Assembly (NCBI GenBank): GCA_025058615.1 | Contig: JANXDM010000001.1 | Coordinates: 1 to 55,722, forward strand | Direction: 5' to 3' | DNA from: Candidatus Pacearchaeota archaeon | Lineage (GTDB): Archaea > Nanobdellota > Nanobdellia > Pacearchaeales > UBA284 | DNA: 55,722 nucleotides | Shown here: positions 32,723 through 51,188 of the stretch, in pieces | How positions within the stretch are numbered: the first letter of the stretch is position 1 | Layout: the number at the start of each line of letters is the position of its first letter | Notes under the pieces: model-generated | Told to the model about the DNA's origin: nothing | The model's database searches: none | The model's input: only the letters and a program-made list of their open reading frames with translations | Program-made: the position numbers and the translations under genes

Positions 32723-33298
32723 CTAGCGTTCCCATGTGGAATAATAAACTATTATAAGTGCTATTGCAATTATTAAAGAAATAATCAAAGTAGAAATTAA
32801 AGACATAATAGGCATCAACAAAAGAATAGAGGAACAAAGTATAAATAAGAATATACCTGTTATGCGCATTCCTGCATATATTTTTACACCTTGTCCTATA
32901 GGCAAGAAAAACAGAAAGGCGGTGAATGCACAAAGATAAGCAAAATAATTTAAATTAATCAAACGCATGATCAATCCGAAAATTAGTAATGCAAGAGGCC
33001 CAGAAACAGCAACTTTAGCAATTTCGTTTTCAGTAACCTCCACAAATTTCTTTCTTATTTTTGTTTTTTTTGGTTCTATATCAAAATTCAAGATAGCCGT
33101 CCATAAAAAATTCCTAGTTATTAAGACAAACAATAGTGGTAAAACAACCCATAAAGGAAATTCAAAACCAAGGGTTTCTTTGGGACTAAAACCGTATTTT
33201 GAGAATGTCAAAAACTTTATTTTTGCATTGCAATCTAATTTGCTTGCAACTATTTTTTCTGCAGTTATAAAAATTAAAAACATTATATTAAAAAACAA
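32723..33298 (-). CDS. Polytopic membrane protein (possible degenerate M50/S2P-like)
   Basis: 191 aa, co-directional and 39 nt downstream of the pilus ATPase. M50-like layout (..VAVSGPLALLIFGL.., ..FLFFLPIGQG..) but lacking HExxH and LDG. Confidence 0.45.
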   Translation of the reverse strand: MFFNIMFLIFITAEKIVASKLDCNAKIKFLTFSKYGFSPKETLGFEFPLWVVLPLLFVLITRNFLWTAILNFDIEPKKTKIRKKFVEVTENEIAKVAVSGPLALLIFGLIMRLINLNYFAYLCAFTAFLFFLPIGQGVKIYAGMRITGIFLFILCSSILLLMPIMSLISTLIISLIIAIALIIVYYSTWER

Positions 33299-33337: not shown

Positions 33338-35617
33338 TTATTTCTTTTTTAATTCTTTTTTAAACCAATCTTCCCACCTTTTAAACACTTCTTTACCTCT
33401 TGGGACGCCTATTTCTTCTCTTACTTTTTCGCAAATCTCATGGAAGGCATTATTACATTTGACGACCCAAGGCGCTTCTAGTATCTCTTGTTGTTTCAAA
33501 GAAATACTCATATTTACCATAGCTTCTTTTATTTTTGCTCTGAGCAATATGTTGTCCCATACAGCATCCCAAGAACCCGCCCATTCTTTTACATTTGAAG
33601 CTATACTTTTCAGAACTTCAGATTCCCCGTTTCTGAAGTCGTCTGTTGCTATTAACTCATCTTTTGTCACGTCATATTTCATCAAGTCTAAAAAACCTTT
33701 TTCAGCTAAAGGATCTATTTGCCAATGTTTTCTTACTTCAGCTATTTCTAAGACGCGACGCCACCTATGCAAGCCGTCTGGACTTTTTATAGGATTTGCT
33801 ATTATTATTATATCTGTAGCTTTGAAGCTTGTTGCTGGAACTTTGAGGTCATTAACAACACGATCGAAAACACCATAAGGACTAGCTCCGTGTATAGTTC
33901 CAGCTACGACATTTGCGAGGGCTCCAACACGCATAGCTTCATAAAGTGCGAGGGCTTCTACACTTCGTACTTCTCCTACAATAAGACAAGAATCTCCTAG
34001 TCTTAGACTTGTTCTTATTCCTTCGTCGGCTGCAAGTTCTGTGCTTTCCCTTGTTAGTGCTTCTCTTACTTTCATTCTGAGAATGTTGTATCCTAGTTCA
34101 CGCATAATATCGACAGGCAATTCCATAGTGCCTTCTATTACTATTATTCTATAGAGCGGCATTATTTCTAACATGCATGCCCCAAGCAAAGATGTTTTTC
34201 CAGAGCTTCTTGTCCCTGCTATTAGCATGGTTCTTCCACCATCGATGAGAAAAGAAAGTAGGCCGGCTGCAAGGGGATTTAACATTTTGTTTTTTATGAA
34301 CAAAGGTAATGTCCAAGGTTTTTCTCTATGTCTTCTGAAAGCATAAGCTAAACCGTAAGGACTTAAAGGTTGTTGTATTACTGCAACCCTTGCTCTTGCC
34401 GTTCCTATTATGAGTTCTGTATCTAGAACAGGATTCGCTTCATCCAGAGGTCTACCAGAAATCATTCTGAATTTGGCTGCCCAAGATTCTGCATCTTCGT
34501 GGCTTGGTATTATATTAGTATCGCATTCGTCATAATCTTGATGTCTCACAAAAATAGGGGCCAATCCTACCGGGCTATTTACTACAATATCTTGCAGCCT
34601 TTCGTCTTGCAAGAGTACTTCTATCAAGCCAAAACCTATTGTATGTCTCACAAGAATTAATGCAAGTTTGTTTATAGTTTTGTAGTTTACATCAATTTTT
34701 TTTGCTTTAGATATTTCTATCAATAAGTCCCGTGCAACGTTAAAAAAAACTTGTCTTATTCTTGCAGGATCTGTAAATTCTTCTGCTTTAGGTTCATGCT
34801 CTAGTAAAATGTTCCTTACATCATTGACCAATGCTTGTAATTCTTCTTTCAGTGAGAATTCTGGAGGACTTAGATGGTAAAGATATTTTACCTTTCCTGG
34901 AATTTTCAGTATGGAAACCCTGCTTCTGTCGTACTCAGGCCCTATTTCATACTCATCAACTATTTCTGCATCTATCGGCATAGAGGCCATTAATCGTGTA
35001 AAAGTGAAATTTGGAACGATTTCAGGCCTGAAAAATAAAGAATATAAGTTTCTATTTTTGTAATTGTCTAACTTTTCTTCTACCGATTTTATAAGCTTTG
35101 TTTTTCCTAAAAGAGAAAAAATTTTATTTAGAATTTTTAAGTATTTTTGTTGACATATTTTACATTCTGGAGTGAAAGTTTTTTCCGTTAATTGCTCTTG
35201 TTCTATTATTTTTTTTGTTTCTATATAACAAGCTATTGGGTCTTGCTTTAGCAAAGTCAGTACAAGGTACCTTATTCCTTCATATCTTTCTGGCAGACAT
35301 CTTTTGCACGAGTAAGGCGCAAGAACTTCTGCAGAAAAAATTTTTTCATGTTTGACCAAGGTTTCGTAGACTTGTGCTATTTCCATCAAAAGAGAAACTT
35401 GTTTGAAATCATAGCTGTAGTTCCTTTGCTGAACAAAAACTATTCTTGAGACATTTGGATTTTCTGTCAATGCATCTATTACGCGGGACATACAAAAAGC
35501 AGAAGAGGCCAGATCAGGGACGAGAGGAGCACCTAAAAAATTAATATACATAACATCTTGCCCTGCTTCTCTTACGATTTCGTACTCGTACAATTTAGTC
35601 TCTTTTTTAAAGATCAT
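33338..35617 (-). CDS. Type II/IV secretion-family ATPase (PilB/FlaI/VirB11-like) with about 330-aa N-terminal extension
   Basis: Walker A IAGTRSSGKTSLLGA, Walker B/Asp-box LIVGEVRSVEA, His-box GTIHGASP. The N-terminal extension has two CxxC pairs (CKRC, CKIC). Confidence 0.85.
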   Translation of the reverse strand: MIFKKETKLYEYEIVREAGQDVMYINFLGAPLVPDLASSAFCMSRVIDALTENPNVSRIVFVQQRNYSYDFKQVSLLMEIAQVYETLVKHEKIFSAEVLAPYSCKRCLPERYEGIRYLVLTLLKQDPIACYIETKKIIEQEQLTEKTFTPECKICQQKYLKILNKIFSLLGKTKLIKSVEEKLDNYKNRNLYSLFFRPEIVPNFTFTRLMASMPIDAEIVDEYEIGPEYDRSRVSILKIPGKVKYLYHLSPPEFSLKEELQALVNDVRNILLEHEPKAEEFTDPARIRQVFFNVARDLLIEISKAKKIDVNYKTINKLALILVRHTIGFGLIEVLLQDERLQDIVVNSPVGLAPIFVRHQDYDECDTNIIPSHEDAESWAAKFRMISGRPLDEANPVLDTELIIGTARARVAVIQQPLSPYGLAYAFRRHREKPWTLPLFIKNKMLNPLAAGLLSFLIDGGRTMLIAGTRSSGKTSLLGACMLEIMPLYRIIVIEGTMELPVDIMRELGYNILRMKVREALTRESTELAADEGIRTSLRLGDSCLIVGEVRSVEALALYEAMRVGALANVVAGTIHGASPYGVFDRVVNDLKVPATSFKATDIIIIANPIKSPDGLHRWRRVLEIAEVRKHWQIDPLAEKGFLDLMKYDVTKDELIATDDFRNGESEVLKSIASNVKEWAGSWDAVWDNILLRAKIKEAMVNMSISLKQQEILEAPWVVKCNNAFHEICEKVREEIGVPRGKEVFKRWEDWFKKELKKK

Positions 35618-35714
35618 TTTTCTTTCTATAGAATCTTTTATTTATAAATCCAACTCTTAATTCTTTGTTAGGAATTCCAAAAATATTTAAATCGAAAATT
35701 CTTCCAAGAAGAAA

Positions 35715-36074
35715 ATGCCACAAGACATAAATAGCATTGCAGCCCTACTTTCTGATTTTACTATAAGAATAAATGATTTGGAAGAAAGACTCAAAATAAT
35801 GCACGAACGTATTACAATATTAGACCAAACTCTACTAAAACAAAATCAGAAAATAATCCAAGAAATAAAAAGCATCAAAGAAGAAATTTCTGAGCTTAAA
35901 GGAAAAATAGACAAAGTTGAAGAAACAATAGATCATATAATATCAGAATCGCAAGAATTTGCACGCAAGGAAGAAATTTTAGCCATAGAAAGGTTTATGA
36001 AAACTTGGGAACCAATGAACTTTGCGACAATAGATGATGTTAAAGAAATGCTTAAAGAAATAAGAAAAAAATAA
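35715..36074 (+). CDS. Coiled-coil protein, unknown function
   Basis: 119 aa, heptad-rich (LEERLKIMHERITILDQTLLKQNQKIIQEIKSIKEEISELKGKIDKVEE). Divergent from the ATPase gene. Confidence 0.5.
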   Translation: MPQDINSIAALLSDFTIRINDLEERLKIMHERITILDQTLLKQNQKIIQEIKSIKEEISELKGKIDKVEETIDHIISESQEFARKEEILAIERFMKTWEPMNFATIDDVKEMLKEIRKK

Positions 36075-36082
36075 TTAATACG

Positions 36083-36694
36083 ATGTTAGCCGACAAAGTC
36101 ATCCAACTTGTAAAGCAAGGGTATAGTGATGCTCAAATAATAAAAATTCTTAGAGAGGAAGGTTACACCCCCAAACAAATAAATGATGCTTTCAACCAGG
36201 CAAAAATAAAATTAGAGCTCAACAGAGAAATAGAAATTCCTAAGCCAGAAGAAAAAGAAACGAGTCAAGTCGAACACGAAGAAAACGAAACATTTTATGA
36301 TTTTTATCCTGCAGTGCAAAGTGTAGGTGTTAGTGATGTGGAAGAAATAGTCTCGGAGATTTTAGAAGATAAATGGCAAGAATTCAGAAAAAAAACCACT
36401 CCTTTTTTTGAAGCAGTAGAAAGGATAGAATCTCTTTTGAAAAATTTTGAAAGAAAGTTAGAAAGAAACGAAGAAGTTATTAAAAAGCTAGCAGATGCTG
36501 CAAAGCAAAAGTTTGTTGAGCACACTCACGAAATAAAAACATTAAAGGCAGAAGTAACTGCACTGCGCGAGACTTTTGATAAAATTATGAAACCCCTAAT
36601 CGTTAAAATAAAAAAAGAGGCAGGGATGCTGACATTTGAGGAAAAAGATAAGGGAAAAAAGGAAAATAAGAAATCGCTCGATTCTTTGTTTTAA
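36083..36694 (+). CDS. Coiled-coil protein with N-terminal three-helix module, unknown function
   Basis: 203 aa. N-terminus LVKQGYSDAQIIKILREEGYTPKQINDAFNQAK, acidic linker, C-terminal coiled coil. Confidence 0.5.
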   Translation: MLADKVIQLVKQGYSDAQIIKILREEGYTPKQINDAFNQAKIKLELNREIEIPKPEEKETSQVEHEENETFYDFYPAVQSVGVSDVEEIVSEILEDKWQEFRKKTTPFFEAVERIESLLKNFERKLERNEEVIKKLADAAKQKFVEHTHEIKTLKAEVTALRETFDKIMKPLIVKIKKEAGMLTFEEKDKGKKENKKSLDSLF

Positions 36695-36729
36695 GAAAAT
36701 TTGTTAATTTATAATTGATGAAAATCGAA

Positions 36730-37689
36730 TCAAGGTTCCTCGTCAGTTATTCCTTTTTCTGTTATAAAAAAAATAGTTTCTGCTTCCGGCAAGTTTGGAG
36801 AATCTATCATTCGTGCTATTCTTGCATCTTTTTTTCCTTTTCTCAAGTAGATTCTATAAGTACTGGCGTGTGCGACTATATGCCCCCCTATCGCTCTGGT
36901 TGGATCGCCGAACATCATAGAAGGATCGGCCATGACTTGATTAGTAACATAAACAGCAAGGTTGTATGTTTCTGCAAGTCTCATTAATGAATGTAAATGT
37001 CTGTTTATGCGTTGCTGTCTTTCAGCAAGTTGCCCTCTTCCGGTAAATTCTGCCCTGAAATGTGCAGTAAGGCTGTCGACTATTATTAGTTTTATTGGTT
37101 CTCCATTTTTGAGGAGTTCTGAAATTTTTTCAACCAAAAGAATCTGATGGTCAGAATTGAAAGCACGCGCAACAAAAATATTTTTCAAAGTTTTTTGGAA
37201 ATCTAATCCAAGGGCCTCACACATTTGCTTTATTCTTTCTGGTCTAAAAGTAGACTCTGTGTCAATCCATACTACTTTTCCGTTTGCTCCTTTTTTTTCT
37301 AAAGGTAGTTGCGCATTTACTGCAAGCTGATGTGCAAGTTGGCTTTTTCCAGAGCCGAAGGCACCATAGGTTTCTGTTATTGCCCTTGTTTCTATTCCCC
37401 CCCCAAGTAATGCGTCAAGATTTTTAGAACCAGTAGTTATTTTTATTACTTCCTGTCTTCTTTTTAAGTATTCAACAGCATTTTCGAATTCCAGATGAAG
37501 CATCTTTCTTGCAGCCGCTATGGCTTTTCTTGCAGCACTTTCAGTTATATCTGCGATTGTGCTCAATTCTGCGGGGTTCATGACAGCAATACTCATCACA
37601 TCCACATAACCAGCTTCTTCTAGTTTTGAAGCCGTTGCCGCCCCTATTCCTGGAAGATCTGTAAGTTTTATTTCTTTTTCTTTTCCCAT
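36730..37689 (-). CDS. radA: DNA repair and recombination protein RadA
   Basis: N-terminal Hh[21 protein letters not shown], Walker [15 protein letters not shown], Walker [13 protein letters not shown]. Track ORF extends to 37707; ATG 37689 (MGKEKEIK..) preferred. Confidence 0.95.
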
Positions 37690-37738
37690 AATAATTATTC
37701 TATACATTGGCTTTTATAAACATTATTCTTTTCTAGCA

Positions 37739-38209
37739 CTATAAAAAATTAGATAATTTATGAAAAGTCATCAACGAGACTAACACAAAAAATACAAGAA
37801 ATAACAAGTTTTCTAAAAGAGAGCCCGTTCTTAAGAATCCTTTTACTTTTACTTTCAAAGGCCAAAAAAGATAAACTCCTTTTATAGTTAGGGAATCAAG
37901 AAGCAAATGGGAAGAGTATCCTGTAGCGAATCCCAGTATTAATACTGGAGAAATTTTTAACAAAAAAAGTGTCAAAGAAAAAATAATCACAAAAGTAAAA
38001 CTTTGAAGGAACCCCCTGTGCCCAAAAAATAAATTGATTAAATGGCTTAGTAAGATTCTTTTTCCTATTTTTGATTTTGGTAGATCTAAGTCAAGAACCA
38101 CCGAAGAAACAACTGTAGAGATAAAAAAAAGAAATTTATTTTTTATTACTAAGGGATCAAGCAGCAAAAAGAGAAAAATTGAAAAAACAAGATGGGTCCT
38201 AAAAAGCAT
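37739..38209 (-). CDS. YdjM/DUF457-like membrane-bound metal-dependent hydrolase
   Basis: 156 aa. N-terminal MLFRTHLVFS, internal HRGFLQS and HLLLDSLT..GV.LFWP, as in the DUF457 family. Confidence 0.55.
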   Translation of the reverse strand: MLFRTHLVFSIFLFLLLDPLVIKNKFLFFISTVVSSVVLDLDLPKSKIGKRILLSHLINLFFGHRGFLQSFTFVIIFSLTLFLLKISPVLILGFATGYSSHLLLDSLTIKGVYLFWPLKVKVKGFLRTGSLLENLLFLVFFVLVSLMTFHKLSNFL

Positions 38210-39170
38210 TTTTTTTACTCAGTTCCTTTATTATTTCTTCTGGATTTACTTCTGAAAAATCATTGACTACGAATTCTTCTCTATCAAATAAAGCATTTTT
38301 TCTCATACGTCCTGCAAATATATATTCTGTTCCTAATATTTTTTGTTTTTTTTCTATTATTATTTCTGGATTTTGTAAATTTTCTATACTTTCTGCTAAA
38401 AATTTCAATGCTGCTTCATGAAAAAACAATATTCTTACGTTAGCAGATCCGTCGTCTGCTATTCCACTTAAAATTATTCTTTTTTTTGGTATCACGAGAC
38501 CATGCTTTATACACAATGTTTTATCATTTTCGAAAGTCGTTTTCATGCTGCACTCAGGGCATACGTTAAAAAAAGAAGGATTAAATAGCTGCACGACCGT
38601 TGCTCTTATTAGTGCATTCTCGTTTTTTCTTAATTCTGATATTTTTGAAATTTTTTTATTATTTGTTCTTACTATTGTTTCTATCTTTTTGTCGCTCAAT
38701 ACAATTTCAGAGCTACTCGTCAAATGTAATTCTTTTGTTGCAATTCCTTTTACATCTGCTTTTTTTATTTCTATTACACTTCCCTCTTTTATAATTTCTT
38801 TTTTTAAAAGCTCTATATGTTTCGTATCCCAAACTACTACTTTTATACTACCTGTTGAATCTGCAATCTCAAAAGAAGCAACTTCCAATTCCTTTCCTCC
38901 TCTTACAAATTTTCTTATTGGATCTATCGCTATGATTTTCCCTGAAACATTTACTTTTTTCATTCCAGAAAGCAAATCTATTATTTGTAATTCTTTTTCT
39001 TGGAAGGAAACACCCAATTCGGAAGCAACTATTTGTGCTGCTCCTTCATCACTTATCAATCCAGAAAATAATGCTTTTTTTGCTTCTACTTTCCTCTTGA
39101 CTTCTTCTATACTTGTATTAGAAAGTTTTGCTATTTTTTCTAAGATTTGTTCTATAGGGGCTTTTATCAT
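38199..39170 (-). CDS. rpa: Replication protein A (RPA)-like ssDNA-binding protein, two OB folds with zinc motif
   Basis: N-terminus LISDEGAAQIVASELGV. OB1 VNVSGKIIAIDPIRKF..LEVASFEIADSTGSIKVVVWD. OB2 interrupted by CPECSMK..CIKH zinc element. Confidence 0.75.
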   Translation of the reverse strand: MIKAPIEQILEKIAKLSNTSIEEVKRKVEAKKALFSGLISDEGAAQIVASELGVSFQEKELQIIDLLSGMKKVNVSGKIIAIDPIRKFVRGGKELEVASFEIADSTGSIKVVVWDTKHIELLKKEIIKEGSVIEIKKADVKGIATKELHLTSSSEIVLSDKKIETIVRTNNKKISKISELRKNENALIRATVVQLFNPSFFNVCPECSMKTTFENDKTLCIKHGLVIPKKRIILSGIADDGSANVRILFFHEAALKFLAESIENLQNPEIIIEKKQKILGTEYIFAGRMRKNALFDREEFVVNDFSEVNPEEIIKELSKKNAF

Positions 39171-39886
39171 TTTAATTTTATTGCTACTCGTATTTTTATT
39201 TTTTCAAAAACAGGAACATTTTCTTTTATTAAAAGATATTTTTTCTTGGACTCAATATCTACGAAAAAGTAATATTGTTTTTTTTCAGTATAGAGGTCCC
39301 AATCCTTTAATTGAATTTTTTTAAAGCAATTTTCTTCTTCGCATTCTTTCAATTGATTGTATAAGTTTTCCATTTCTTGTAAGTTTATGCTTTCTGTAAA
39401 ATTCAACTTTATTTCTGAAAGAAAGCTATAATTGACGGCATTCTCTTTTCTTTCTTCTATCTTCACTTCTAATTCTATAGTTTCAAAAGGTGTGCACGAG
39501 AAATTCAATTTTTTTGGATATCTTTCCATTATTTTAGAAAATTCTTCGCAAAATAATCTGGAGAACCATTCTTTTAATTCACGCGGTTTGCAATTTTCTT
39601 CCCATACTATTTTTCCTTCTTGCAGCATACATTCTGAGTAATCTTTTACAAAAGAAGTATTTGCCATTCTGTTTAATGTTTGGGATTCAGCAAGCTCTAA
39701 TGCTTTTTTCATATAAACCTTTATTCTTTCTTTCTCTTGTTCTATTTCTAGAAACTTTTTTGCAGTTATAGTGTTTTTCAAAATTTCTTTTTGGGTTGTA
39801 GTAAGAAGATAAAGAGCCACACCAATAGCTAGCAAGGTAACCAAAACAAAAGTTACACCAAAAGTTATAGCTTTTTTGTTTTTCAT
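39167..39886 (-). CDS. Prepilin-like secreted/anchored protein
   Basis: Start set to MKNKKAITFGVTFVLVTLLAIGVALYLL (basic KKA then a hydrophobic helix, like a class III signal peptide). Stop overlaps the RPA start by 4 nt. Confidence 0.55.
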   Translation of the reverse strand: MKNKKAITFGVTFVLVTLLAIGVALYLLTTTQKEILKNTITAKKFLEIEQEKERIKVYMKKALELAESQTLNRMANTSFVKDYSECMLQEGKIVWEENCKPRELKEWFSRLFCEEFSKIMERYPKKLNFSCTPFETIELEVKIEERKENAVNYSFLSEIKLNFTESINLQEMENLYNQLKECEEENCFKKIQLKDWDLYTEKKQYYFFVDIESKKKYLLIKENVPVFEKIKIRVAIKLK

Positions 39887-39890
39887 TTTA

Positions 39891-40370
39891 TTACATCCCG
39901 TAAGTATAATCATGTTCTATATACATTGCAACAACTATTGCAATCGTTTCGTTTGAAGGAAGTAGAAGACATGAATTGTACTCTGTAGGGTCTTTTGTAT
40001 TTTCACATCTTTCTCTGATTTCTAGATAGCAGCAACATCCTTTTTTCAAATTTTTTATACAGAACTCTTCTAATTTTTCTTTTATTTCTCTCGGTAGTTC
40101 TTTCCTCAAGATCAATATTTGTGAGAGTTCTAACTCTTCAGTTTCATCACCTAATTGTATTTTTATTTTTTTCTCTAAAAACTCTTCTAACGCTTTTTGC
40201 ATCCTTATTTTGTCTTGTAAGATTTTTGAATCTTCTTCTATTCTTTTGTTGGTAGAATTAGAAAGAATTATAGAGATGACTAAGAAGATGATTACTAGAA
40301 AAAAAGCAACAAGGAAAGCTACGACATCATGAGTTAATTCTCCGATTTGTGCTTTCTTTCTTTCAAACAT
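39891..40370 (-). CDS. Prepilin-like protein, Cys-rich
   Basis: MFERKKAQIGELTHDVVAFLVAFFLVIIFLV; C-terminal domain with CCCYLEIRERC and further Cys. Confidence 0.55.
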   Translation of the reverse strand: MFERKKAQIGELTHDVVAFLVAFFLVIIFLVISIILSNSTNKRIEEDSKILQDKIRMQKALEEFLEKKIKIQLGDETEELELSQILILRKELPREIKEKLEEFCIKNLKKGCCCYLEIRERCENTKDPTEYNSCLLLPSNETIAIVVAMYIEHDYTYGM

Positions 40371-40809
40371 TTTTTTCTGTTTTTAGGATCGCCAAGTGTA
40401 ATGACAAAATTTTTTCTGTTTCATTCTCGAAAAAAAGATAATTGTCGTTGAAGCAATGAGGAAAATGTTTCATCTTAATTTGCTTTTCTTTCATCTCACA
40501 ATAAGTCTTTAGCTCCTGTCTTCCCAAACTTAAATTTTTTTCTGATTTGTTTTCTTTGTTTATGCTTATTTCTAAGAATATTTCTTGGTCAAGAGTTATA
40601 CATTCTTTTATTTTACTCTCGTTTAGAGTATTCTTTTCTATACATGCAACAAGTTTGTTTGCAAGCAAAGAAGCCTCGAGAGGCCTCACGTCGTACTCTA
40701 AAGAATTATGTCTTATTATTCCAAACAAGAGTAAGCCTATGATTATTATAATCATGATAAAACGGTATAACCAAATTAAAGATTCTGAAAGTTGTGCTTT
40801 TTTTTGCAT
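40363..40809 (-). CDS. Prepilin-like protein
   Basis: MQKKAQLSESLIWLYRFIMIIIIIGLLLF. 8-nt overlap with the downstream gene. Confidence 0.55.
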   Translation of the reverse strand: MQKKAQLSESLIWLYRFIMIIIIIGLLLFGIIRHNSLEYDVRPLEASLLANKLVACIEKNTLNESKIKECITLDQEIFLEISINKENKSEKNLSLGRQELKTYCEMKEKQIKMKHFPHCFNDNYLFFENETEKILSLHLAILKTEKNV

Positions 40810-40810
40810 T

Positions 40811-41137
40811 TTATTCTATAAAAATTATAGTTTTATTATCTTTTTTTTCGAATTCGAATTTGCTATGGCATGGATAAAAGAAACCCGGGTCGAACTTGTT
40901 TTTTTTTACAAGAAAACCATTTTCATATTTTTCTATTATAAATTTAGTATCTATGATTATGGTTGTGTTTTTTTTGGCCATAGATACAAGGCATAATTCT
41001 TTCGAAATTATTTTTGGAACAGTTCCTTCTGCTGTTTTTGTTGAGATAAAATAAATAACAACAGAAAGAAGAAATGTGAGAATAATGATACTAAAGATAG
41101 AATGATAAAGTAAAGTTTCTGTAGCTCTTTTGTTCAT
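40811..41137 (-). CDS. Prepilin-like protein
   Basis: MNKRATETLLYHSIFSIIILTFLLSVVIYFI. First gene after a 250-bp spacer. Confidence 0.5.
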   Translation of the reverse strand: MNKRATETLLYHSIFSIIILTFLLSVVIYFISTKTAEGTVPKIISKELCLVSMAKKNTTIIIDTKFIIEKYENGFLVKKNKFDPGFFYPCHSKFEFEKKDNKTIIFIE

Positions 41138-41387
41138 GGTTTTTTAAAGAAAAAATAAGCTTAATAATTTTTTGTTTAGAAAATTTGATAAATTAAAAAT
41201 TTTCTTTAAAGGAAAAAAGAATACTTGCATTGCAGATCTTTTTGCGAACAGGAGAGAATGGGAAGATTATAAATTTAAACAAGATTTTTAAAGAAAAAAT
41301 AAGAAAAATTTTCCAGGCGTACTAAGGCTGTTAGAGAACATATTATCAAGAAATTTGTTATGAGACTATGAAGTAGCTATTAAATAA

Positions 41388-42278
41388 TCAAGGAATGCTT
41401 TCTATACTAGAACATTTTAATTGTTTGATTGCTTCTGCTTCGAAAGGGACGAGCATGAAACTTACCCAATAATCATTTTTTTCTATTAATTCCTGAAGTT
41501 TGTCCCCAATCTCATTTCCTGTATAAATTCCAAAAGTAGTCCCGGCTAGTGCTCCCGTTAAGGTAACTACTGTTGAAATTTTTCCTGCGATAAGAGACCC
41601 AACCACGGTTCCTGCTCCTGGAAGAATGATGGTGCCTATTGCTGCACCAGCAAAAGCTCCGGCCAAACCCATTATAGTCCCCCCACCTAGAGACCCTAGT
41701 AATGTAGATTTTTCTGTTAAAGAATATACAAGCGCATATTTTCTGTTAGTTTCTAAAGAAATCTCTACAGGAAGTTTTTCTATAGGGGCTTCTGCATTTT
41801 GTAGAAATTCCCAATAAGAAATATTCTTACCCGGAACTTTTGTTTTTATCAAATAGAGAAGAATACCATCTATTTTTTTGATTTTTTTTTGTACCTTTTC
41901 ATCAAATTCTATTGTTGCGCATATCACACAATAGCTCGGATTCCCCAGTGTTGGCTTTCGTTGGAAAAAGTTCATCTTACCTTGTCCTAGCATCCACCAG
42001 CAGTCGTACATTGTATTTGCTATTTCTCTTTTTATTGTTTCTTCGTTTGTTGAATCTATCTTTATCTTTTGTGTTTTACACCTAAGCGGAACTTCTAATA
42101 CTAATTCACCTCGCAGGAAAATTTCATTTCTAAGAACAACACTTTTGTGACAAGCTTCTTTTTCAGAACTTTCTTTATAAGGGATCTGTCTAAAAAAATA
42201 GAAAAGCAACGCAGCTGCCACAACCAATATTATTAAACCTATCAAAAAATGTTGAGTTATCCCTGCTTTTTTTTTCAT
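41388..42278 (-). CDS. Prepilin-like protein with Cys-containing domain and C-terminal glycine-zipper segment
   Basis: MKKKAGITQHFLIGLIILVVAAALLF. Later LLGSLGGGTIMGLAGAFAGAAIGTIILPGAGTVVGSLIAGKISTVVTLTGALAGTTFGIYTG. Confidence 0.6.
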   Translation of the reverse strand: MKKKAGITQHFLIGLIILVVAAALLFYFFRQIPYKESSEKEACHKSVVLRNEIFLRGELVLEVPLRCKTQKIKIDSTNEETIKREIANTMYDCWWMLGQGKMNFFQRKPTLGNPSYCVICATIEFDEKVQKKIKKIDGILLYLIKTKVPGKNISYWEFLQNAEAPIEKLPVEISLETNRKYALVYSLTEKSTLLGSLGGGTIMGLAGAFAGAAIGTIILPGAGTVVGSLIAGKISTVVTLTGALAGTTFGIYTGNEIGDKLQELIEKNDYWVSFMLVPFEAEAIKQLKCSSIESIP

Positions 42279-42403
42279 TTTACTCGAACAAATTTATTCC
42301 CAATGCCGGCAAAAGATATTTGACAAAAGCAAAAGCTATTACGAAGCATGCTACTATAATTATTATTAACCTTATTAAATTTTCGCTGACGCTTTTTTTA
42401 TTT

Positions 42404-42886
42404 TTAATTTTCATATTTCTTCAAGAGTTCAACTTCGTAATGAGTCCCTGCATGGGTTATATTCAAATCCATTATATTTATTTTCAAAAAAAGAGTTTCG
42501 TTTTTCATTTTGAAAATTAAATCAATTTCACGACATGCTTTTTCGTCACACTTATTTTTTTCACAAATACATAAAACTCTCTTTCCTAACATAGAAGATG
42601 GCTTTTCGTAATTATTTTTATTTATGTTTACGTTTTCTTCAAAGCAAACGATATGCCAGCCTTTTGGTGTTGTTACGGTTATTATTCTCGAACTTCCTGG
42701 TTGCATCTTTTTTACTTCTTCAATGATGTATTCCAAAGTGCCTATGGCTTTTTCCATCGAAGACTTTCCGAAAAGGAATCCTAAGAATATTCCAAAAATG
42801 ATAAAAATTAAGGTTATTCCGATGACAGCAATAATTAATTTTACAATTTCTGGCCCTAATATTTTATGATCAGCTTTTTTATTCAT
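42404..42886 (-). CDS. Prepilin-like protein, Cys-rich
   Basis: Start set to ATG 42886: MNKKADHKILGPEIVKLIIAVIGITLIFIIF. CICEKNKCDEKAC cluster. Confidence 0.55.
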   Translation of the reverse strand: MNKKADHKILGPEIVKLIIAVIGITLIFIIFGIFLGFLFGKSSMEKAIGTLEYIIEEVKKMQPGSSRIITVTTPKGWHIVCFEENVNINKNNYEKPSSMLGKRVLCICEKNKCDEKACREIDLIFKMKNETLFLKINIMDLNITHAGTHYEVELLKKYEN

Positions 42887-42949
42887 TTCTAAAAAAAGCA
42901 AGCAAACTATTTAAAAGTTGTTTAACCGTATTGTTCTCTAGGTATTAAC

Positions 42950-43150
42950 CTACTGTAATGGCTTGACTTGAGAAGCATTCCATAACCCTAGAGCATTTTT
43001 TATTTTTGTCCATATACTGCTAGAAATGTCTTTCATCGCACCGGTTAAAATTAAAACAAGAATAACCAGAACAATAAGTAGTAAAATAATAATAACAATT
43101 GTGTTAATAGAAAGCTCTACCCCCTTCTTTTTTATTCCTAATCCGCCCAT
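42950..43150 (-). CDS. Minimal type IV pilin-like protein (66 aa)
   Basis: MGGLGIKKKGVELSINTIVIIILLLIVLVILVL has the classic archaeal class III signal peptide shape (KKG then a hydrophobic helix). Overlaps the upstream gene by 13 nt. Confidence 0.65.
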   Translation of the reverse strand: MGGLGIKKKGVELSINTIVIIILLLIVLVILVLILTGAMKDISSSIWTKIKNALGLWNASQVKPLQ

Positions 43151-43512
43151 TCTTTTTCTAACTCTTCACACATTTCTTTTGTGAACTCCACTCGCTTGCA
43201 CTCTTCTGTTTTGTAGGCTGCTATTTCTTTGTCGGTGCATCTCATTTTAACTGTGCTTTTTCCGTCGGTCGCTTTTATTATGAAGTCGTGATAACAAAAC
43301 ATTTCTTTGTTGAGACCTGTGCAATAAGTTTTACAAACCTCTCTCGCTTGTTCTACGTCAGCTTGGTCCCATGCTCCTTTCGCACCTGTTATTCTCTGCC
43401 ACAAACTTTTCATTCCTCCGGTAAAATAGAGAGCAATAATTACCAAAACTAAAAGAGCAAGGATTATTATTATTATTGTTGTTATATTAATTTCTGCTCC
43501 GCGTTTTTGCAT
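43138..43512 (-). CDS. Type IV pilin-like protein, Cys-rich head
   Basis: MQKRGAEINITTIIIIILALLVLVIIALYF (KRG then a hydrophobic helix). Seven Cys in the C-terminal 80 aa. Confidence 0.65.
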   Translation of the reverse strand: MQKRGAEINITTIIIIILALLVLVIIALYFTGGMKSLWQRITGAKGAWDQADVEQAREVCKTYCTGLNKEMFCYHDFIIKATDGKSTVKMRCTDKEIAAYKTEECKRVEFTKEMCEELEKEWAD

Positions 43513-43559
43513 TTTCCTCTTTTATTAAATAAGAACTTTTTTATTTTTTAAAACTTTCG

Positions 43560-44444
43560 TTATTCTATACATCCATTTTTTATTTTAATCTCTTGTCCTG
43601 AAGTTATGTTTTTTGCCTCGTGAGAACAAAGTAGATTTTCTTTTTCAAATTTTACTTCCTCTTTTTTTAAGAAAAGTTCTTTTTTCATTTCTATCTTTGT
43701 TTTTTTTATAACTTCTCCTTCATACAAAAGAAGGATTTCATTTTTTTTACATTTTATAATATATCCAATTGGAAGTTCTACCTTTTTGATAGCCTCTTTG
43801 TTTGCTTTTAATAAAGAAACGATATATTCGAATTCCTTTATTGCTTCCGTCCTTCTTTCCTTACAAAGCGGGAATTCTTCGATCATTTTTTGTATTTTTT
43901 CTGCATCTTGAATTTTTTTTGTCATCAAGAGAAAACCAACTTCATGAGTTCTCTTGTAAATTTTATCAGACGTGATGAATCTTTTTGTTTTTTTTTCGAA
44001 AGGAAATTTTTTTGTGAATTCTATGTTGGCTTCTAAAAAAGCACTTTGCTCTAATTCCAGCGTAGGTTTTAAACTTAAAGTTTGTAGACTAAAATTTTTT
44101 ATTTTCTCTTCCCTTATCTTGTTTTTTTTATACCATAAACTTGTATTGATTGTTTTTCCTTCTACAGTAAATGTCAGATAAACCTCTTTAGGGAAAGAAT
44201 CTGAGAAGTTTGGAAAAATAACACAAAAACATTCACTATCTTTGATACTGGAGCATTCTTCGAGGCTTTTCAGAAGTTTTTTGAAGTTATCCTCCATTTT
44301 TTCTTTTAGTTCTTCGCTGAGAGAAGGACCCTTTATCCAAGAATATAATTCTCTGAAAGCTTTCGGAGCAAAAATTAAGACAATAACTATTACTATTAAA
44401 ACTATTATGAAAGCTATTACATGTGATAATTTTTCTTCAGGCAT
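43560..44444 (-). CDS. N-terminally anchored secreted protein of the pilus locus
   Basis: MPEEKLSHVIAFIIVLIVIVIVLIFAPK, 294 aa, several Cys. Confidence 0.5.
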   Translation of the reverse strand: MPEEKLSHVIAFIIVLIVIVIVLIFAPKAFRELYSWIKGPSLSEELKEKMEDNFKKLLKSLEECSSIKDSECFCVIFPNFSDSFPKEVYLTFTVEGKTINTSLWYKKNKIREEKIKNFSLQTLSLKPTLELEQSAFLEANIEFTKKFPFEKKTKRFITSDKIYKRTHEVGFLLMTKKIQDAEKIQKMIEEFPLCKERRTEAIKEFEYIVSLLKANKEAIKKVELPIGYIIKCKKNEILLLYEGEVIKKTKIEMKKELFLKKEEVKFEKENLLCSHEAKNITSGQEIKIKNGCIE

Positions 44445-44447
44445 TTT

Positions 44448-44600
44448 TCATCTTCCGAAACGTAAAAAATTTTTTAATTGTTCTATCACATTTATTCCTT
44501 TTTTTTGCATTAAATACAAGCCGATTATTACCAAGACAAGAATTATTATTGCAATTATCCACCAGCCCAATTCTTGCTGCAGCAAAGCTTTTTTTTTCAT
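44448..44600 (-). CDS. Small prepilin-like membrane protein, 50 aa; not in ORF track
   Basis: My translation is MKKKALLQQELGWWIIAIIILVLVIIGLYLMQKKGINVIEQLKNFLRFGR. It exactly fills the gap between 44602..46752 and 43560..44444 (1-nt and 3-nt spacers). Confidence 0.5.
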   Translation of the reverse strand: MKKKALLQQELGWWIIAIIILVLVIIGLYLMQKKGINVIEQLKNFLRFGR

Positions 44601-44601
44601 T

Positions 44602-46752
44602 TTAGACTATTATGGATCCGACCGCTATTATTGCAAGTAGCCCCAATAGAGCGGTAGCAACTAATGCTGCCAAGAAATACAAAATTATTGCTGTTAATAA
44701 ATTTTTACTGCTTTCGTATTTTTCTCCTAATCTGTCCTCCCCATTTTCTATTGTGACTAGTGTAGATGTCAATATTAGCACTATTTCTATTAGATAAATC
44801 CCTATTATTATTTGCAACCAATATGGTGGGATCATTTTTACAACGTTGAACATGCTTGTTATTGCTCCTACAGTGCCTAACCCGACGAGTTCATGTGTTG
44901 CTGTTAATTCTCCTGTTTCAATCAAAATTTGGAGCTTGCTCAAAATCAAAGTTATCATTGCTGCAAGACCAGTAACAACCGCAGCCAACAAAGGAGCTAA
45001 AAAATTCATGTTGCTTTTCATACTACTTGCTATATCTGCTAACAAATCTTTTAGTCTCTCAGAAACTTTGTGGATATTTTTAACATACTCGCTTATAGCC
45101 ATCATTGCTCTTGCTGCAATACCTAGTCCTTTTTTTACCGCTTCGACAAGGATTTGCATACTTGTTCTTATCAAATCTGAAGGGTAATAATTTATAGCCC
45201 CACGTGTTTTGTTGAAAATTGCTTGTTCTAAAGACATTCCTAATTGTTGAATGTTTGTGCTTACTATCGTGAAGAAACCTTCTGTTGCTGTTCCTCTTAT
45301 GCTATTAGCGACCCTTCCAAAAGCCATTTCTGCTGGAATGCCGTCTGCGAGTCTATTTCCTAATTGAAAAATTGCAGAACTGAATTCTTGTTCTAGTTTT
45401 TTTGTTTCTTCTCTTGTTTTTATTAATTTTTGTGTTTTCAGTTTGTACGCTGTAGAGAAGAAAATTGCAATTCCTAAAGTAAAAAATAACCCGAGAATTA
45501 CAGCAAAAAATCCAAAAGGTCCAACGCTCTTACCAGTCTCTTGATCTTGTTTGAAGTCAAATGCGGGCTGTCCGAGAAAACTAATGTTGTAGTCTCTTTC
45601 TAATCCTAAGATGTGAGGAAGGTCTGTGTAGTGAAAAAGCAAAGGAAGCATGCCAATAAATAAAAAAGGAAGTGCGAAGAAAAAAGCTTTTATGTATACT
45701 GTGTTATCTTTGTAGTATTTATAATTTGGGTTTCTTTCTAGGAGTTCTGTTTCCCCATATCCTGCTGGCCTTCTTGCCAGTACTTGGGAAGTCATGTAAA
45801 AAACGAAGAATGGTAATATTATATTGAACAAAATAGCTACGTGGTACCATTTAATTGCTCCTTGTAAAAGAGTAGAAGCCAAAGGGAGCAACGCTAGGCC
45901 TAAAGTAGGTAATACTATCCCAAGCATGTAAATGTTTGTTATTGGAGATTTTACTTCGTGTGTAAAATGTATCATTTTTTCATACATGCCGTCGAGAATA
46001 ACTTGCATAGCTTTTTCCAAGATTGCTATTCTTCTTTCTTCTACGGGTTCATAGAGCGAAGATTCTATGAGATGCATCGCTTCTATAAACTCCGGATTGT
46101 ATTTTCGCCATTTTTCCAAGTAAGCATCTAAAGCATCTTTTATTGTCGCATATTTTGCAGTTTCTACATCGTAGAAAATTTTTTTGAAATCAAGCGCGAG
46201 AGGCGGCTGTAAGTTGTTTGCTGCAAACCTTACCGCCCGTTCGAGGTTGCTTGTGTGGCGCATGTAAATAACGATGTAGAGTATTGCCGGAACCATCTGC
46301 GATGCTGCTTTGAGACGCCATTTTTGTGCAAGTCTGAATGGCAAAGTGTTTAAATAATAAAATAAGAAAAGAGTAACAAACATCAGCAAGAAAAAAATAA
46401 GGAGAGCATTATTTAGATTATTCGTAAATAAAAAAATTGCAACGCAAATCAAAGCAGAAACTATAAAGCCTAGTAGCAGAGAAAATATCGCAAGCCCAGC
46501 AGCTTCTCCAGGCTCTATTTCCAAATGTGCCGTTTCTATTGCTTCTTGTAATGCGATTGCATCTTTTTCTTTTAGTTTTATTTTTATTATACGCCCTACA
46601 TTTTTACACGCTTTTTCATATCTGGAGGGGATCAAGGTCGATTCTTCTTTGAACTTCAAGTATTCTTTAGAATAGTCGGTTGTTTCTTCGAAGTCTAACC
46701 TTATTTTTGATTTCAACTCTCGCAAAAAATCTTTAGTGTTCGGTTTTACCAT
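44602..46752 (-). CDS. FlaJ/TadC/PilC-like polytopic platform protein (T2SS-F family, long form)
   Basis: 716 aa. Two cytoplasmic helical domains, each followed by TM bundles (..ANNLQPPLALDFKKIFYDVETAKY.., ..SSAIFQLGNRLADGIPAEMAFGRVANS..). First gene of the pilin cluster. Family call rests partly on context. Confidence 0.6.
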   Translation of the reverse strand: MVKPNTKDFLRELKSKIRLDFEETTDYSKEYLKFKEESTLIPSRYEKACKNVGRIIKIKLKEKDAIALQEAIETAHLEIEPGEAAGLAIFSLLLGFIVSALICVAIFLFTNNLNNALLIFFLLMFVTLFLFYYLNTLPFRLAQKWRLKAASQMVPAILYIVIYMRHTSNLERAVRFAANNLQPPLALDFKKIFYDVETAKYATIKDALDAYLEKWRKYNPEFIEAMHLIESSLYEPVEERRIAILEKAMQVILDGMYEKMIHFTHEVKSPITNIYMLGIVLPTLGLALLPLASTLLQGAIKWYHVAILFNIILPFFVFYMTSQVLARRPAGYGETELLERNPNYKYYKDNTVYIKAFFFALPFLFIGMLPLLFHYTDLPHILGLERDYNISFLGQPAFDFKQDQETGKSVGPFGFFAVILGLFFTLGIAIFFSTAYKLKTQKLIKTREETKKLEQEFSSAIFQLGNRLADGIPAEMAFGRVANSIRGTATEGFFTIVSTNIQQLGMSLEQAIFNKTRGAINYYPSDLIRTSMQILVEAVKKGLGIAARAMMAISEYVKNIHKVSERLKDLLADIASSMKSNMNFLAPLLAAVVTGLAAMITLILSKLQILIETGELTATHELVGLGTVGAITSMFNVVKMIPPYWLQIIIGIYLIEIVLILTSTLVTIENGEDRLGEKYESSKNLLTAIILYFLAALVATALLGLLAIIAVGSIIV

Positions 46753-46828
46753 CTTTTTAAAAACGAAGGAAAAACATTATAAAAATTTTTGCAACAATAT
46801 TTAAAACCAAGAAATCTATTTGTATAAA

Positions 46829-49369: not shown

Positions 49370-49648
49370 ATGTTGAAGATATTGAAGATAAGTGAAGTGG
49401 TAGGGATGAAAGTATTTACAGATGGTGGGGATTTCATAGGGACTATTGAAGAAGCTAACTTGTTGGGGAACAGAGTTGAAAGTTGGCGTGTTAGGGTTGC
49501 AAAAAATTCTAGCGTAGGGCCTTATTTAAGCGGAGCAAAAGGTTTGATTATTCCACACCAATATATCAAAGCGTTTGGAGAAGTTGTAATTATAAGTAAG
49601 ACAGCAATACCAAAAGAGGAAGCAGAATCTATAGAAGAAATAGAATAA
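49370..49648 (+). CDS. PRC-barrel domain protein
   Basis: 92 aa. VVGMKVFTDGGDFIGTIEEANLLGNRVESWRVRV...LIIPHQYIKAFGEVVIISK. Confidence 0.7.
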   Translation: MLKILKISEVVGMKVFTDGGDFIGTIEEANLLGNRVESWRVRVAKNSSVGPYLSGAKGLIIPHQYIKAFGEVVIISKTAIPKEEAESIEEIE

Positions 49649-49654
49649 ACAAAG

Positions 49655-50122
49655 ATGAATGGATTTATCCCACCCTTCATCTATAATGTACTTCTACCTT
49701 TTTTACTTGTCTTTGCTGTTGTTTTTGCAATTCTTGAGAAAACCAAAGTTTTAGGAGAAAAAAGAAATATTAACCTAATAGTTTCTTTTTGCATAACTTT
49801 TATTTTTGTAGGCGTTCCAGCAATGGTAAATGTAACTTTGCGTTTGATACCTGTGGTTTCTTCGATAATAGTAGTTTTGCTTTGTTTACTTCTACTTTTT
49901 GGATTTGCTGGTTTGAGGGTGGAAGAAAACAAAACCTTAAGGACAATCCTTGGAGTAATTCTAGGAATTGCCTTAGCTGTAGTTGTGTTCTGGGCTTCTG
50001 GAGCAATGGACAAGTTCAGAGGAACAAAAATTTCAGAAGCAACTCTTAATTATATAATTTTTTTTAGCATTTTCGTCTTGGCTATTGTTGTAGTTTTGGT
50101 TGGTGGGAAGAAAAGGGAATAA
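49655..50122 (+). CDS. Small 4-TM membrane protein, paralog 1 of 3
   Basis: Shared N-terminal motif NVLLPFLLVFAVVFAILEKTKVLGEKRN. 155 aa. Confidence 0.6.
   Translation: MNGFIPPFIYNVLLPFLLVFAVVFAILEKTKVLGEKRNINLIVSFCITFIFVGVPAMVNVTLRLIPVVSSIIVVLLCLLLLFGFAGLRVEENKTLRTILGVILGIALAVVVFWASGAMDKFRGTKISEATLNYIIFFSIFVLAIVVVLVGGKKRE
49684..49742 (+). repeat. 59-nt perfect direct repeat, copy 1
   Basis: taatgtacttctaccttttttacttgtctttgctgttgtttttgcaattcttgagaaaa, identical to 50242..50300 (compared base by base). Confidence 0.9.
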
Positions 50123-50158
50123 GGAAAGTTTTAAAAATTAAAAAATCTTCAAATAAAA

Positions 50159-50701
50159 ATGGAAATATTATTACAGTATCATTGGTATTATGGTGGTCCT
50201 ATGGAACAGATGATTTCTCAATGGGCCCAACTCGGAGTTTTTAATGTACTTCTACCTTTTTTACTTGTCTTTGCTGTTGTTTTTGCAATTCTTGAGAAAA
50301 TAGACTTACTTAAAAATCGGGGAGTTCATGCTATCATAAGCCTTGCTGTAGGTTTTTTTACAATAGCAAATCCTTATGTAATCTCTTTTTTTCTTCCACT
50401 TTTTTCTAATCTTGGTCTTGGAGTTGCAATTCTAATTGCTCTTGTTGTTGTTTTGGGTCTTGCGATACATCCTGGAGAAAAAACGTGGAAAACTATTTTT
50501 TTAGTTATGGGGGTAATTATCTTTATAGTAGTTCTTGGTAAGGCAGGAATTTTTAATTACTTGAATATTTTTGGATATTGTGATTCTTATTGTCAAAGCA
50601 CAGTTGTTTTTTTTGTTATAGTTGGTCTTGCTGTGCTTGTCGCATTGCTTTATGGAAAAAAAGAAGAAGGAAAAATGATAGCAATACCTGCGGGAAAATA
50701 A
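50159..50701 (+). CDS. Small membrane protein, paralog 2 of 3
   Basis: ..GVFNVLLPFLLVFAVVFAILEKIDLLKNRG.. Start may be the internal Met at 50201. Confidence 0.6.
   Translation: MEILLQYHWYYGGPMEQMISQWAQLGVFNVLLPFLLVFAVVFAILEKIDLLKNRGVHAIISLAVGFFTIANPYVISFFLPLFSNLGLGVAILIALVVVLGLAIHPGEKTWKTIFLVMGVIIFIVVLGKAGIFNYLNIFGYCDSYCQSTVVFFVIVGLAVLVALLYGKKEEGKMIAIPAGK
50242..50300 (+). repeat. 59-nt perfect direct repeat, copy 2
   Basis: Identical to 49684..49742; flanking sequence diverges immediately on both sides. Confidence 0.9.
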
Positions 50702-50702
50702 A

Positions 50703-51188
50703 ATGGAGATGATAGATGTTTCGGCTGGTGTGACAATGTTCATGCCGGTATTCGCTTTTCTTCTTGTTTTTGCAGTCACATATGGTTTGCTTAGCAAAAC
50801 AAAAGTATTGGGAGAAAATAAATTTGTGCATATTCTTGTGAGTTTTGCTGTAGCAATAATTTTTTTGGCTTCTGCTAGCGCGATCCATTATGCAAAAGTT
50901 TCTGCGGGATGGTTTGCTGCTTTCATAATAAGTTTGCTTTTTATTGTTTTGATAGTGGGCCTTGTAAGAAAAAATCTTGAAGATATCATGACGAAAGGAT
51001 TCGCATGGTTCATAGTTATATCTTTAATTTTAATTTTCATATTTTCCGGAGCTTATGTTTTTCGTGATGTTATAAACACCTACCTAAGCAGGCCGAGAGC
51101 AATAATTTTTGATCCTACTATTTTTGGTGTTGTAATCCTAGTTGGAGTTACGATTTTTGCCGCATGGCTAATGACAAGAGAAAAATAA
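50703..51188 (+). CDS. Small membrane protein, paralog 3 of 3
   Basis: ..MFMPVFAFLLVFAVTYGLLSKTKVLGENKF.. has the same architecture but is divergent at DNA level. 1-nt gap to paralog 2. Confidence 0.6.
   Translation: MEMIDVSAGVTMFMPVFAFLLVFAVTYGLLSKTKVLGENKFVHILVSFAVAIIFLASASAIHYAKVSAGWFAAFIISLLFIVLIVGLVRKNLEDIMTKGFAWFIVISLILIFIFSGAYVFRDVINTYLSRPRAIIFDPTIFGVVILVGVTIFAAWLMTREK

Follow-up and report, generated by a model that had tools for sequence, protein, structure and literature searches.

We analysed a 55.7-kb stretch of DNA (hereafter the window) from a Pacearchaeota-type DPANN archaeon and find that one locus within it probably encodes, at a rough probability of 0.78, an archaeal type IV filament machine of a Tad/Epd-like kind, comprising a secretion ATPase, a TadC/FlaJ-like platform protein and a long series of prepilin-like proteins. 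This bears out the core of an initial annotation, made from the sequence alone, which had read the locus as the type IV pilus-like system of a DPANN-type archaeon, with an ATPase, a FlaJ/TadC-like platform and numerous prepilins. Archaeal type IV filaments as such are well known, and DPANN archaea have been reported to have some of them (PMC4858521; preprint 10.64898/2026.04.22.720090). The window has a G+C content of 31% and carries core archaeal genes (PolD, Cdc6/Orc1, FtsZ, SRP54/FtsY, RadA, RPA, SecE, Spt5 and tRNA synthetases), and its proteins find their nearest homologs in entries labelled Candidatus Pacearchaeota, Woesearchaeota or Nanoarchaeota; the first two of these groups rank with the most abundant archaea not yet cultured. 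Throughout, the window is compared with a census of 84 related loci (numbered with an L), and counts of loci are given out of 85.

The prepilin-like array and its signal motif

The centre of the locus is a co-directional minus-strand array that runs from 46752 down to 39167, exactly where it had been described, with the platform gene followed by eleven open reading frames (ORFs) rather than the ten originally counted. The array genes are as follows (a slash marks the putative cleavage point):

44602–46752, minus strand: platform protein, 716 amino acids (aa), about nine transmembrane (TM) helices; divergent, TadC/FlaJ-like, assigned to the T2SSF superfamily
44448–44600, minus strand: p50, short Flp-like prepilin-like protein, MKKKA/LLQQELGWW..., about 45 aa if processed
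43560–44444, minus strand: p294, bitopic, putative accessory protein with seven cysteines (Cys) and an N-terminal anchor helix, without class III motif
43138–43512, minus strand: p124, prepilin-like, MQKRG/AEINITT..., with a 6-Cys globular domain
42950–43150, minus strand: p66, short prepilin-like paralog of the p124 N-terminus, ..KKKG/VELSINT...
42404–42886, minus strand: p165, prepilin-like, MNKKA/DHKIL... from the ATG at 42886; N-terminal pilin-like module alone
42280–42414, minus strand: p44, tiny prepilin-like ORF, ..KNKKS/VSENLIRL...
41388–42278, minus strand: p296, prepilin-like, MKKKA/GITQHF..., six invariant Cys and a C-terminal Gly-zipper segment
40811–41137, minus strand: p108, prepilin-like, MNKRA/TETLLYHS...
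40363–40809, minus strand: p148, prepilin-like, MQKKA/QLSESLIW...
39891–40370, minus strand: p159, prepilin-like, MFERKKA/QIGELTHD..., contains CCC
39167–39886, minus strand: p248, prepilin-like, MKNKKA/ITFGVTF... from the ATG at 39886; it closes the array

All of these genes are intact and closely packed, with operon-like intergenic spacing of –13 to +63 nt and a single exception of 250 bp. This exception, an AT-rich stretch between p296 and p108 (41138–41387), is the sole sizeable non-coding gap in the array and may hold an internal promoter. Downstream of p248 follow RPA, YdjM and RadA on the minus strand, two plus-strand coiled-coil genes, the ATPase gene and the gene for a 191-aa protein with five TM helices (5-TM).

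A class III-type signal, that is a short basic leader with G, A or S at –1 followed by a hydrophobic helix, is found in ten of the eleven ORFs. Nine of them (p50, p124, p66, p165, p296, p108, p148, p159 and p248) have [KR][KR][GA] ahead of the helix, p44 has KKS, and p294 is without the motif; the motif noticed originally is therefore real, while its count changes from eight of ten to nine of eleven, plus the KKS of p44. The motifs of p165 and p248 directly follow internal ATGs (42886 and 39886, respectively), which are the preferred starts, since they fit the family consensus better than the first start codons do. Across the 85 loci the motif is kept in 300 of 317 orthologs (∼95%) of the ten families, and positions that the motif leaves unconstrained are kept as well (K at –3 in 87% and N at –4 in 57%), giving the consensus M-N-K-[KR]-[G>A]. 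In every ortholog from the four loci L001–L004 the motif stands at the equivalent position, its –1 residue being G in some and A in others. The initial annotation had allowed that orthologs might lack a conserved G/A at –1 and that relatives might lack the cluster; G or A is kept at this position in the orthologs, and the cluster is kept in the 84 related loci. Chance does not account for the motif, as a motif-plus-helix scan of the 85 loci gave 601 matches against 23 when it was repeated on reversed sequences, and all ten genuine matches in the window lie inside the array. An all-against-all profile comparison further showed that the pilin-like families resemble each other only over their N-terminal 25–60 residues and have nothing in common beyond them, which is how true type IV pilins behave.

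Among the individual families p50 stands out, as its gene starts 1 nt after the platform gene and is present in 59/85 loci (motif in 55 of 59 orthologs). Its N-terminus is related to those of p124 and p66, it matches the Pfam family Flp1_like weakly (E = 0.095, 12.6 bits), and it is the likeliest candidate for the major subunit. The short p66, which aligns to p124 with 99.2% probability over 55 residues (hhalign) and keeps the motif in 14 of 15 orthologs, reaches 19.1 bits (E = 9e-4) against Flp1_like; these scores amount to a resemblance only, the gathering threshold of that family (PF16982) being 33.5 bits. The third short ORF, p44, occurs only in the window and in two related loci (L001 and L005).

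The most widespread pilin-like protein is p296 (68/85 loci; motif in 67 of 69 orthologs), whose six invariant Cys were read from its alignment (A4) and whose AlphaFold2 (AF2) model, at a pLDDT of 69, has a long N-terminal helix and a beta-sheet core. Present in 42/85 loci and frequently duplicated beside the gene for the A24 prepilin peptidase, p124 has no Pfam match and keeps the motif in 48 of 49 orthologs; the seven Cys once ascribed to it turn out to be six, seven being the number in p294, whereas the CCC reported for p159 is real. The motif is kept in 37 of 40 orthologs of p165 (whose window copy has no catalytic domain by Pfam) and likewise of p148, in 12 of 13 of p159, to which the N-terminus of p148 is related, in 14 of 14 of p248 and in 14 of 15 of p108. 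The last of these is specific to the window's sub-clade, and so is p294, which is found in 14 loci only and lacks the motif in 10 of its 14 orthologs. Compared with their L005 orthologs the globular pilin-like proteins are 41–58% identical; the platform, at 82%, is as conserved as RadA (84%).

The secretion ATPase and the platform protein

The ATPase gene was placed by the initial annotation 3.5 kb away from the array, on the same strand and as the only one of its kind, and it is confirmed there:

33338–35617, minus strand: secretion ATPase, 759 aa, GspE/FlaI/TadA group (T2SSE)

Its identity is directly supported by a Pfam T2SSE score of 42.9 bits (cut-off 24.9) and by matches to solved structures, namely afGspE of A. 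fulgidus (2OAP, E = 5e-27 over residues 217–656), CpaF (7e-18) and FlaI (1.5e-16). A. fulgidus GspE and Sulfolobus FlaI (4II7) are its best solved homologues, with the N- and C-domains (217–656) and the Walker A motif, GTRSSGKT at residues ∼468–475, in common. Against the NCBIfam models it scores 123.8 bits for FlaI (E = 8e-36; equivalog cut-off 550) and 58.7 bits for BasE (cut-off 1000), and it matches the TadA model below threshold. As these scores are far under the equivalog thresholds of FlaI, TadA and BasE, we regard it as a divergent member of the archaeal secretion ATPases. An archaellum can be rejected, since the array and neighbouring ORFs have no Pfam matches to FlaH, FlaF/FlaG or archaellin (Arch_flagellin) and the FlaI score is 123.8 rather than 550 bits; the absence of these proteins nearby also sets the locus apart from systems built around GspE or FlaI. 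Ahead of the region aligned to 2OAP, which begins at residue 217, lies a lineage-specific N-terminal extension of ∼215 aa, for which GspE and FlaI have no counterpart. This is shorter than the ∼330 aa first proposed; the two CxxC pairs reported in it do exist (C104/C107 and C152/C155), but they are kept in merely 14–22% of 59 homologs, so that we reject a family-wide zinc site and consider them a local feature, whereas residues 1–90 are conserved across these homologs. Variable N-terminal domains of the ATPases of archaeal type IV filaments have already been described (preprint 10.64898/2026.04.22.720090). An intein (Intein_splicing + LAGLIDADG_3) interrupts the 1253-aa T2SSE ATPase (L085:1567-5328) that one distant relative encodes next to its platform homolog.

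Several results weigh against a filament machine. The mature pilin-like domains fall into no Pfam or NCBIfam family and none of them matches a known pilin family, and the fold search with the p296 model found no PDB neighbour (best E = 3.9); the remark in the initial annotation that these domains resemble nothing recognisable thus holds at the level of Pfam and NCBIfam, and for p296 also at the level of the fold. The platform has no match to Pfam T2SSF (PF00482) at E ≤ 1, nor have 30 homologs at 56–82% identity to it, and searches with the single sequence or a 31-sequence profile gave no NCBIfam or PDB sequence match. An hhalign comparison of its two halves found no internal repeat, and the full-length Foldseek E-values of its model are weak (∼0.2–0.9). 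No Peptidase_A24 was found in the window, either by Pfam search of the polytopic ORFs or by phmmer search with a relative's A24 against the six-frame translation, in agreement with the earlier statement that no prepilin peptidase is in view, and the closest relatives (L001–L003 and L005–L017) have none within 10 kb of the locus. Finally, the p165 of the window carries no hydrolase head.

For the platform, the missing T2SSF match, which by itself would speak against the proposed FlaJ/TadC-like protein, is overturned by intermediate sequences together with the fold. When 40 divergent relatives were chosen as full-length members (A1 profile E ≤ 1e-82), 23 of them matched PF00482, the best at E = 1.1e-15 and one at 32.8 bits, above the gathering score. 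These matches map onto residues 157–290 of the window platform, the first T2SSF-like repeat, and a broader platform-family profile (A2) finds GspF/EpsF as its best PDB match (E = 0.012) at the start of the second cytoplasmic domain, which begins at about residue 459. The AF2 model of the platform (pLDDT 80.5) places the PilC chain of a T4aP machine model at the top of a Foldseek search, and the cytoplasmic domains of EpsF and OutF align to it locally with TM-scores of 0.67–0.73. The gene neighbours of one distant, T2SSF-positive relative encode a T2SSE ATPase and a protein rich in Cys whose leader (RKG/Q) is class III-like. On the strength of the relatives, the A2 profile and the fold matches, we assign the 716-aa protein to the T2SSF superfamily; as judged from sequences and model, it is a platform whose clade has drifted beyond the Pfam model. 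The family is large, with more than 3000 homologs at 55–83% identity and 1243 clusters at the 50%-identity level.

Across the lineage the locus has the same four core parts as archaeal Epd-type or 'system 1' pili and bacterial Tad/Flp pili, which are built with a FlaI/TadA-CpaF ATPase, a TadB/TadC platform, a short Flp-like pilin and an A24 peptidase. The likeness to Tad/Flp pili extends to a very short headless pilin encoded after the platform gene with weak Flp1_like matches, to the ATPase, which matches CpaF (E = 7e-18) and the TadA models, and to a few platform homologs that carry the JGI label TadB. In contrast to system 1, which has two platform genes, there is a single one here, its 716-aa product undetected by T2SSF, and in contrast to Tad/Epd systems generally, the ATPase has its ∼215-aa extension, no known family is related to the mature pilin domains, the neighbours are a coiled-coil pair, a PRC-barrel protein, 5-TM paralogs and an M50-like protein, and both ATPase and peptidase are displaced in the window.

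Locus rearrangement and the prepilin peptidase

The commonest layout among the related loci is compact and reads M50-like / PRC-barrel + 5-TM paralogs / coiled-coil pair / ATPase-platform-pilin-like genes-A24 / RPA-(YdjM)-RadA, and in most related loci the ATPase gene adjoins the platform gene. In 40 of the 84 related loci an A24 homolog (PF01478) is encoded no more than 10 kb away, often as the last gene of the array. A search for A24 homologs gave 1148 matches; the best 120 of these 1148 all carry PF01478, some being annotated as Pacearchaeota prepilin peptidase, and these best 120 all belong to sub-clades other than that of the window. As far as these sequences tell, the type IV-like system of this lineage is one that uses an A24 peptidase.

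The window belongs to a rearranged sub-clade, together with L001, L002 and L005–L016. In this sub-clade the PRC-barrel gene and the paralog block are inverted beside the platform gene, the coiled-coil pair, the ATPase gene and the M50-like gene have shifted beyond RadA, pilin-like genes have been added (p294, p66, p108, p159 and p248) and A24 is gone from the locus. The locus had been called dispersed, and its parts are indeed separated in the window, but the census reveals this as a derived rearrangement of a normally compact locus. Since a compact ATPase/platform/A24 layout is common in the relatives, we take the ATPase 3.5 kb away to be the cognate one and its dispersal to be derived. The description of the system as 'complete-looking' was too strong, the peptidase being absent from the window. 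Separately, in one other sub-clade (L029, L036, L039, L043, L049, L051, L053, L061, L069, L077 and L084) the order is canonical except that the platform gene is flipped with respect to the ATPase and pilin-like genes.

The loss of A24 from the window and from the loci of its nearest relatives, along with the loss from p165 of a hydrolase head that is present in sister lineages, could also be taken to mean that this sub-clade retains only a remnant of the system, decaying or without function, with the peptidase gene gone from the locus and the helices acting as ordinary uncleaved anchors. We attach next to no weight to this explanation, as the genes are intact and closely spaced, the platform has stayed as similar to its L005 ortholog as RadA has, the leader motif including G/A at –1 is retained, and the sub-clade has gained the five pilin-like genes rather than lost them.

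Several neighbouring genes travel with the locus:

35715–36694, plus strand: two coiled-coil proteins (119 and 203 aa), divergent from the ATPase gene, with generic coiled-coil Pfam matches only
32723–33298, minus strand: 5-TM protein, 191 aa, just downstream of the ATPase gene; degenerate M50-like, without HExxH motif and without Pfam match
49370–51188, plus strand: PRC-barrel protein (92 aa) and a set of three 5-TM paralogs (155, 180 and 161 aa), upstream of the platform gene and in divergent orientation to it

The coiled-coil pair is linked to the ATPase gene in 55–56/85 loci and through three locus arrangements, having moved along with it, and may be a cytoplasmic accessory or scaffold. 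The 191-aa protein, linked in 36/85 loci and with a faint Peptidase_M50 mark in its L004 ortholog, is a candidate accessory protein. The PRC-barrel match has E = 1.7e-5; the three 5-TM paralogs, which have a common N-terminus (LLPFLLVFAVVFAILEK), belong to no Pfam family, and the 155-aa one found nothing in NCBIfam either. This block is linked to the ATPase/platform locus in 53–60/85 loci through three different rearrangements, which makes its members conserved neighbours and candidate participants. We considered the 191-aa protein and the three paralogs as a hidden or replacement peptidase and rejected them, as they have no A24 similarity, were not flagged for a G-x-[GHA]-D motif and co-occur with a real A24 elsewhere. 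Between the platform gene and the PRC block lies an 829-aa Lys/Glu-rich ORF with a TTG start (46820–49309, plus strand); it may be a recent insertion, because it has no Pfam or NCBIfam match and no counterpart in the 84 related loci.

On its other side the array runs into RPA-(YdjM)-RadA (36730–39170 in the window, minus strand), which follows the last pilin-like or A24 gene co-directionally in 42/85 loci and does so across the rearrangements; in the window p248 ends 4 nt past the start of RPA, which in turn shares 11 nt with YdjM. Synteny alone may explain this adjacency, or it may reflect a functional tie to DNA handling; in the latter case one might imagine a DNA-uptake or DNA-exchange pilus coupled to RPA, YdjM and RadA, with a logic like that of competence pseudopili or the Ups/Ced systems. 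Such a pilus is highly unlikely, given that other genes intervene in L004 and that no ComEC- or Ced-like DNA-translocation channel turned up among the Pfam-scanned ORFs of the window. RPA and RadA are moreover single-copy housekeeping genes and the whole window is core genome, so that their linkage may be plain conserved synteny in a reduced genome.

Returning to the Tad/Epd-like filament machine, we can outline how it would work. Ten precursors, each starting with a very short basic leader of the form M-x-K-[KR]-[G/A], would enter the membrane, and we infer that an A24 (PibD/FlaK-type) peptidase, which would be encoded outside the window, cleaves them after G or A. A hexameric GspE/FlaI-type ATPase would dock on the T2SSF-type platform and power assembly of a filament via the common N-terminal helix. 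The bulk of this filament would most likely be p50, possibly together with p66 and p44, while binding specificity would come from the Cys-rich globular proteins p124, p165, p296, p108, p148, p159 and p248, acting as minor or tip subunits. The likeliest role would be attachment to another cell, probably a bacterium, as the p165-type module and further signal-bearing proteins of sister lineages bear murein-hydrolase or lectin heads.

Hydrolase-bearing relatives and a possible role in cell contact

In the related loci we found 75 large signal-bearing proteins, among them proteins with SLT (6), 3D (2), Glucosaminidase (2), Amidase_2 (2) and Laminin_G_3 (1) domains. Leader-bearing hydrolases include the following:

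L002:14412-15491: SLT
L011:14164-15408 and L012:15048-16190: 3D domain
L014:14377-15405 and L017:13830-14858: glucosaminidase
L020:16711-17901 and L023:16518-17738: Amidase_2

The position of p165 is a hot spot for interchangeable heads: its N-terminal module is joined to SLT in L002, L006, L007 and L008, to 3D in L011 and L012 and to glucosaminidase in L014 and L017, and stands alone in the window, L001 and L005. Just upstream of another ATPase/platform locus, L025:4139-8890 encodes a 1584-aa protein with a class III-like leader, Peptidase_S8 (subtilase), Inhibitor_I9 and FG-GAP repeats.

Enzymes and lectins that carry this signal (SLT, 3D, glucosaminidase, amidase, Laminin_G_3 and the subtilase with FG-GAP repeats) would also suit a pseudopilus or bindosome-like system for display and secretion, in which the signal anchors surface enzymes and binding proteins and only a short stalk is built. 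Class III signal peptides have been argued to functionalise surfaces with binding proteins (preprint 10.64898/2026.04.22.720090). In the Sulfolobus bindosome (Bas), too, surface proteins that form no filament carry class III signals and have an ATPase/platform pair of their own; the ATPase here is weakly similar to BasE, and the C-terminal Gly-zipper of p296 is a membrane-like segment. We nevertheless consider a display system unlikely, because the short Flp-like p50, p66 and p44, which are encoded right after the platform and widely conserved, are typical of filament systems, and because, in contrast to Bas, the window array has no substrate-binding proteins by Pfam (neither sugar-binding proteins nor solute-binding domains) and BasE stays at 58.7 bits against a cut-off of 1000. 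We favour an adhesive Tad-like filament with variable minor subunits, since the relatives carry hydrolase and lectin heads on their signal-bearing proteins.

Modular type IV pilins, in which a functional head is grafted onto a pilin module, include PilB and PilC of Streptococcus sanguinis. The p165-type module of the relatives, with its exchangeable SLT, 3D and glucosaminidase heads, resembles them, but its heads are murein hydrolases although the organism has no murein of its own, the p165 of the window is headless, and incorporation into a filament is putative. These heads suggest, from their domain composition, contact with bacterial cell walls, and with the window p165 headless this target is borrowed from the relatives. 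The proposal that the locus is a host-contact apparatus accordingly gains support from the pilin-hydrolase fusions in relatives and keeps its conditional character: the system may be one for host contact.

Secreted murein hydrolases (GH23/SLT and glucosaminidase) of Nanoarchaeota and Woesearchaeota have been proposed to attack bacterial walls (PMC12352652, PMC9723730, PMC8204110), and most archaeal peptidoglycan hydrolases are reported, in literature including these three papers, to be without a recognised Sec or Tat signal; pilins, class III signals and type IV pili go unmentioned in the three. The hydrolases described here come from the same lineages and have the same catalytic domains, but lie inside a pilus-like locus behind a prepilin-type leader. 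The searchable literature gave no description of this type of Pacearchaeota locus, of its Pfam-invisible platform, of the accessory neighbours or of pilin-hydrolase fusions. A further step, which we offer tentatively and hold to be possible though doubtful, is that the Tad-like filament serves as a tool for breaching bacterial walls, its pilin module with swappable murein-hydrolase heads (SLT, 3D, glucosaminidase and amidase) being mounted through class III signals on or beside the filament, so that the archaeon would attach to a bacterial host and open the peptidoglycan locally. If so, the 'signal-less' archaeal peptidoglycan hydrolases would be prepilin-type cargo, the coiled-coil pair, the PRC-barrel protein and the 5-TM paralogs would be unrecognised parts of the machine, and the organism of the window would be a variant that lost the hydrolase head of p165.

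A set of strongly conserved 'hypothetical' proteins, among them a 716-aa protein that is as conserved as RadA, gains a possible function from this locus, and because the Pfam and NCBIfam models miss this platform, counts of archaeal type IV filaments that rely on such models may come out too low for the lineage. The part of greatest follow-up value is the link to the hydrolases: a prepilin-type leader on four kinds of murein hydrolase in sister lineages provides a concrete hypothesis for contact between archaea and bacteria, and the class III route would be a possible secretion path for the archaeal peptidoglycan hydrolases that have been reported without signals.

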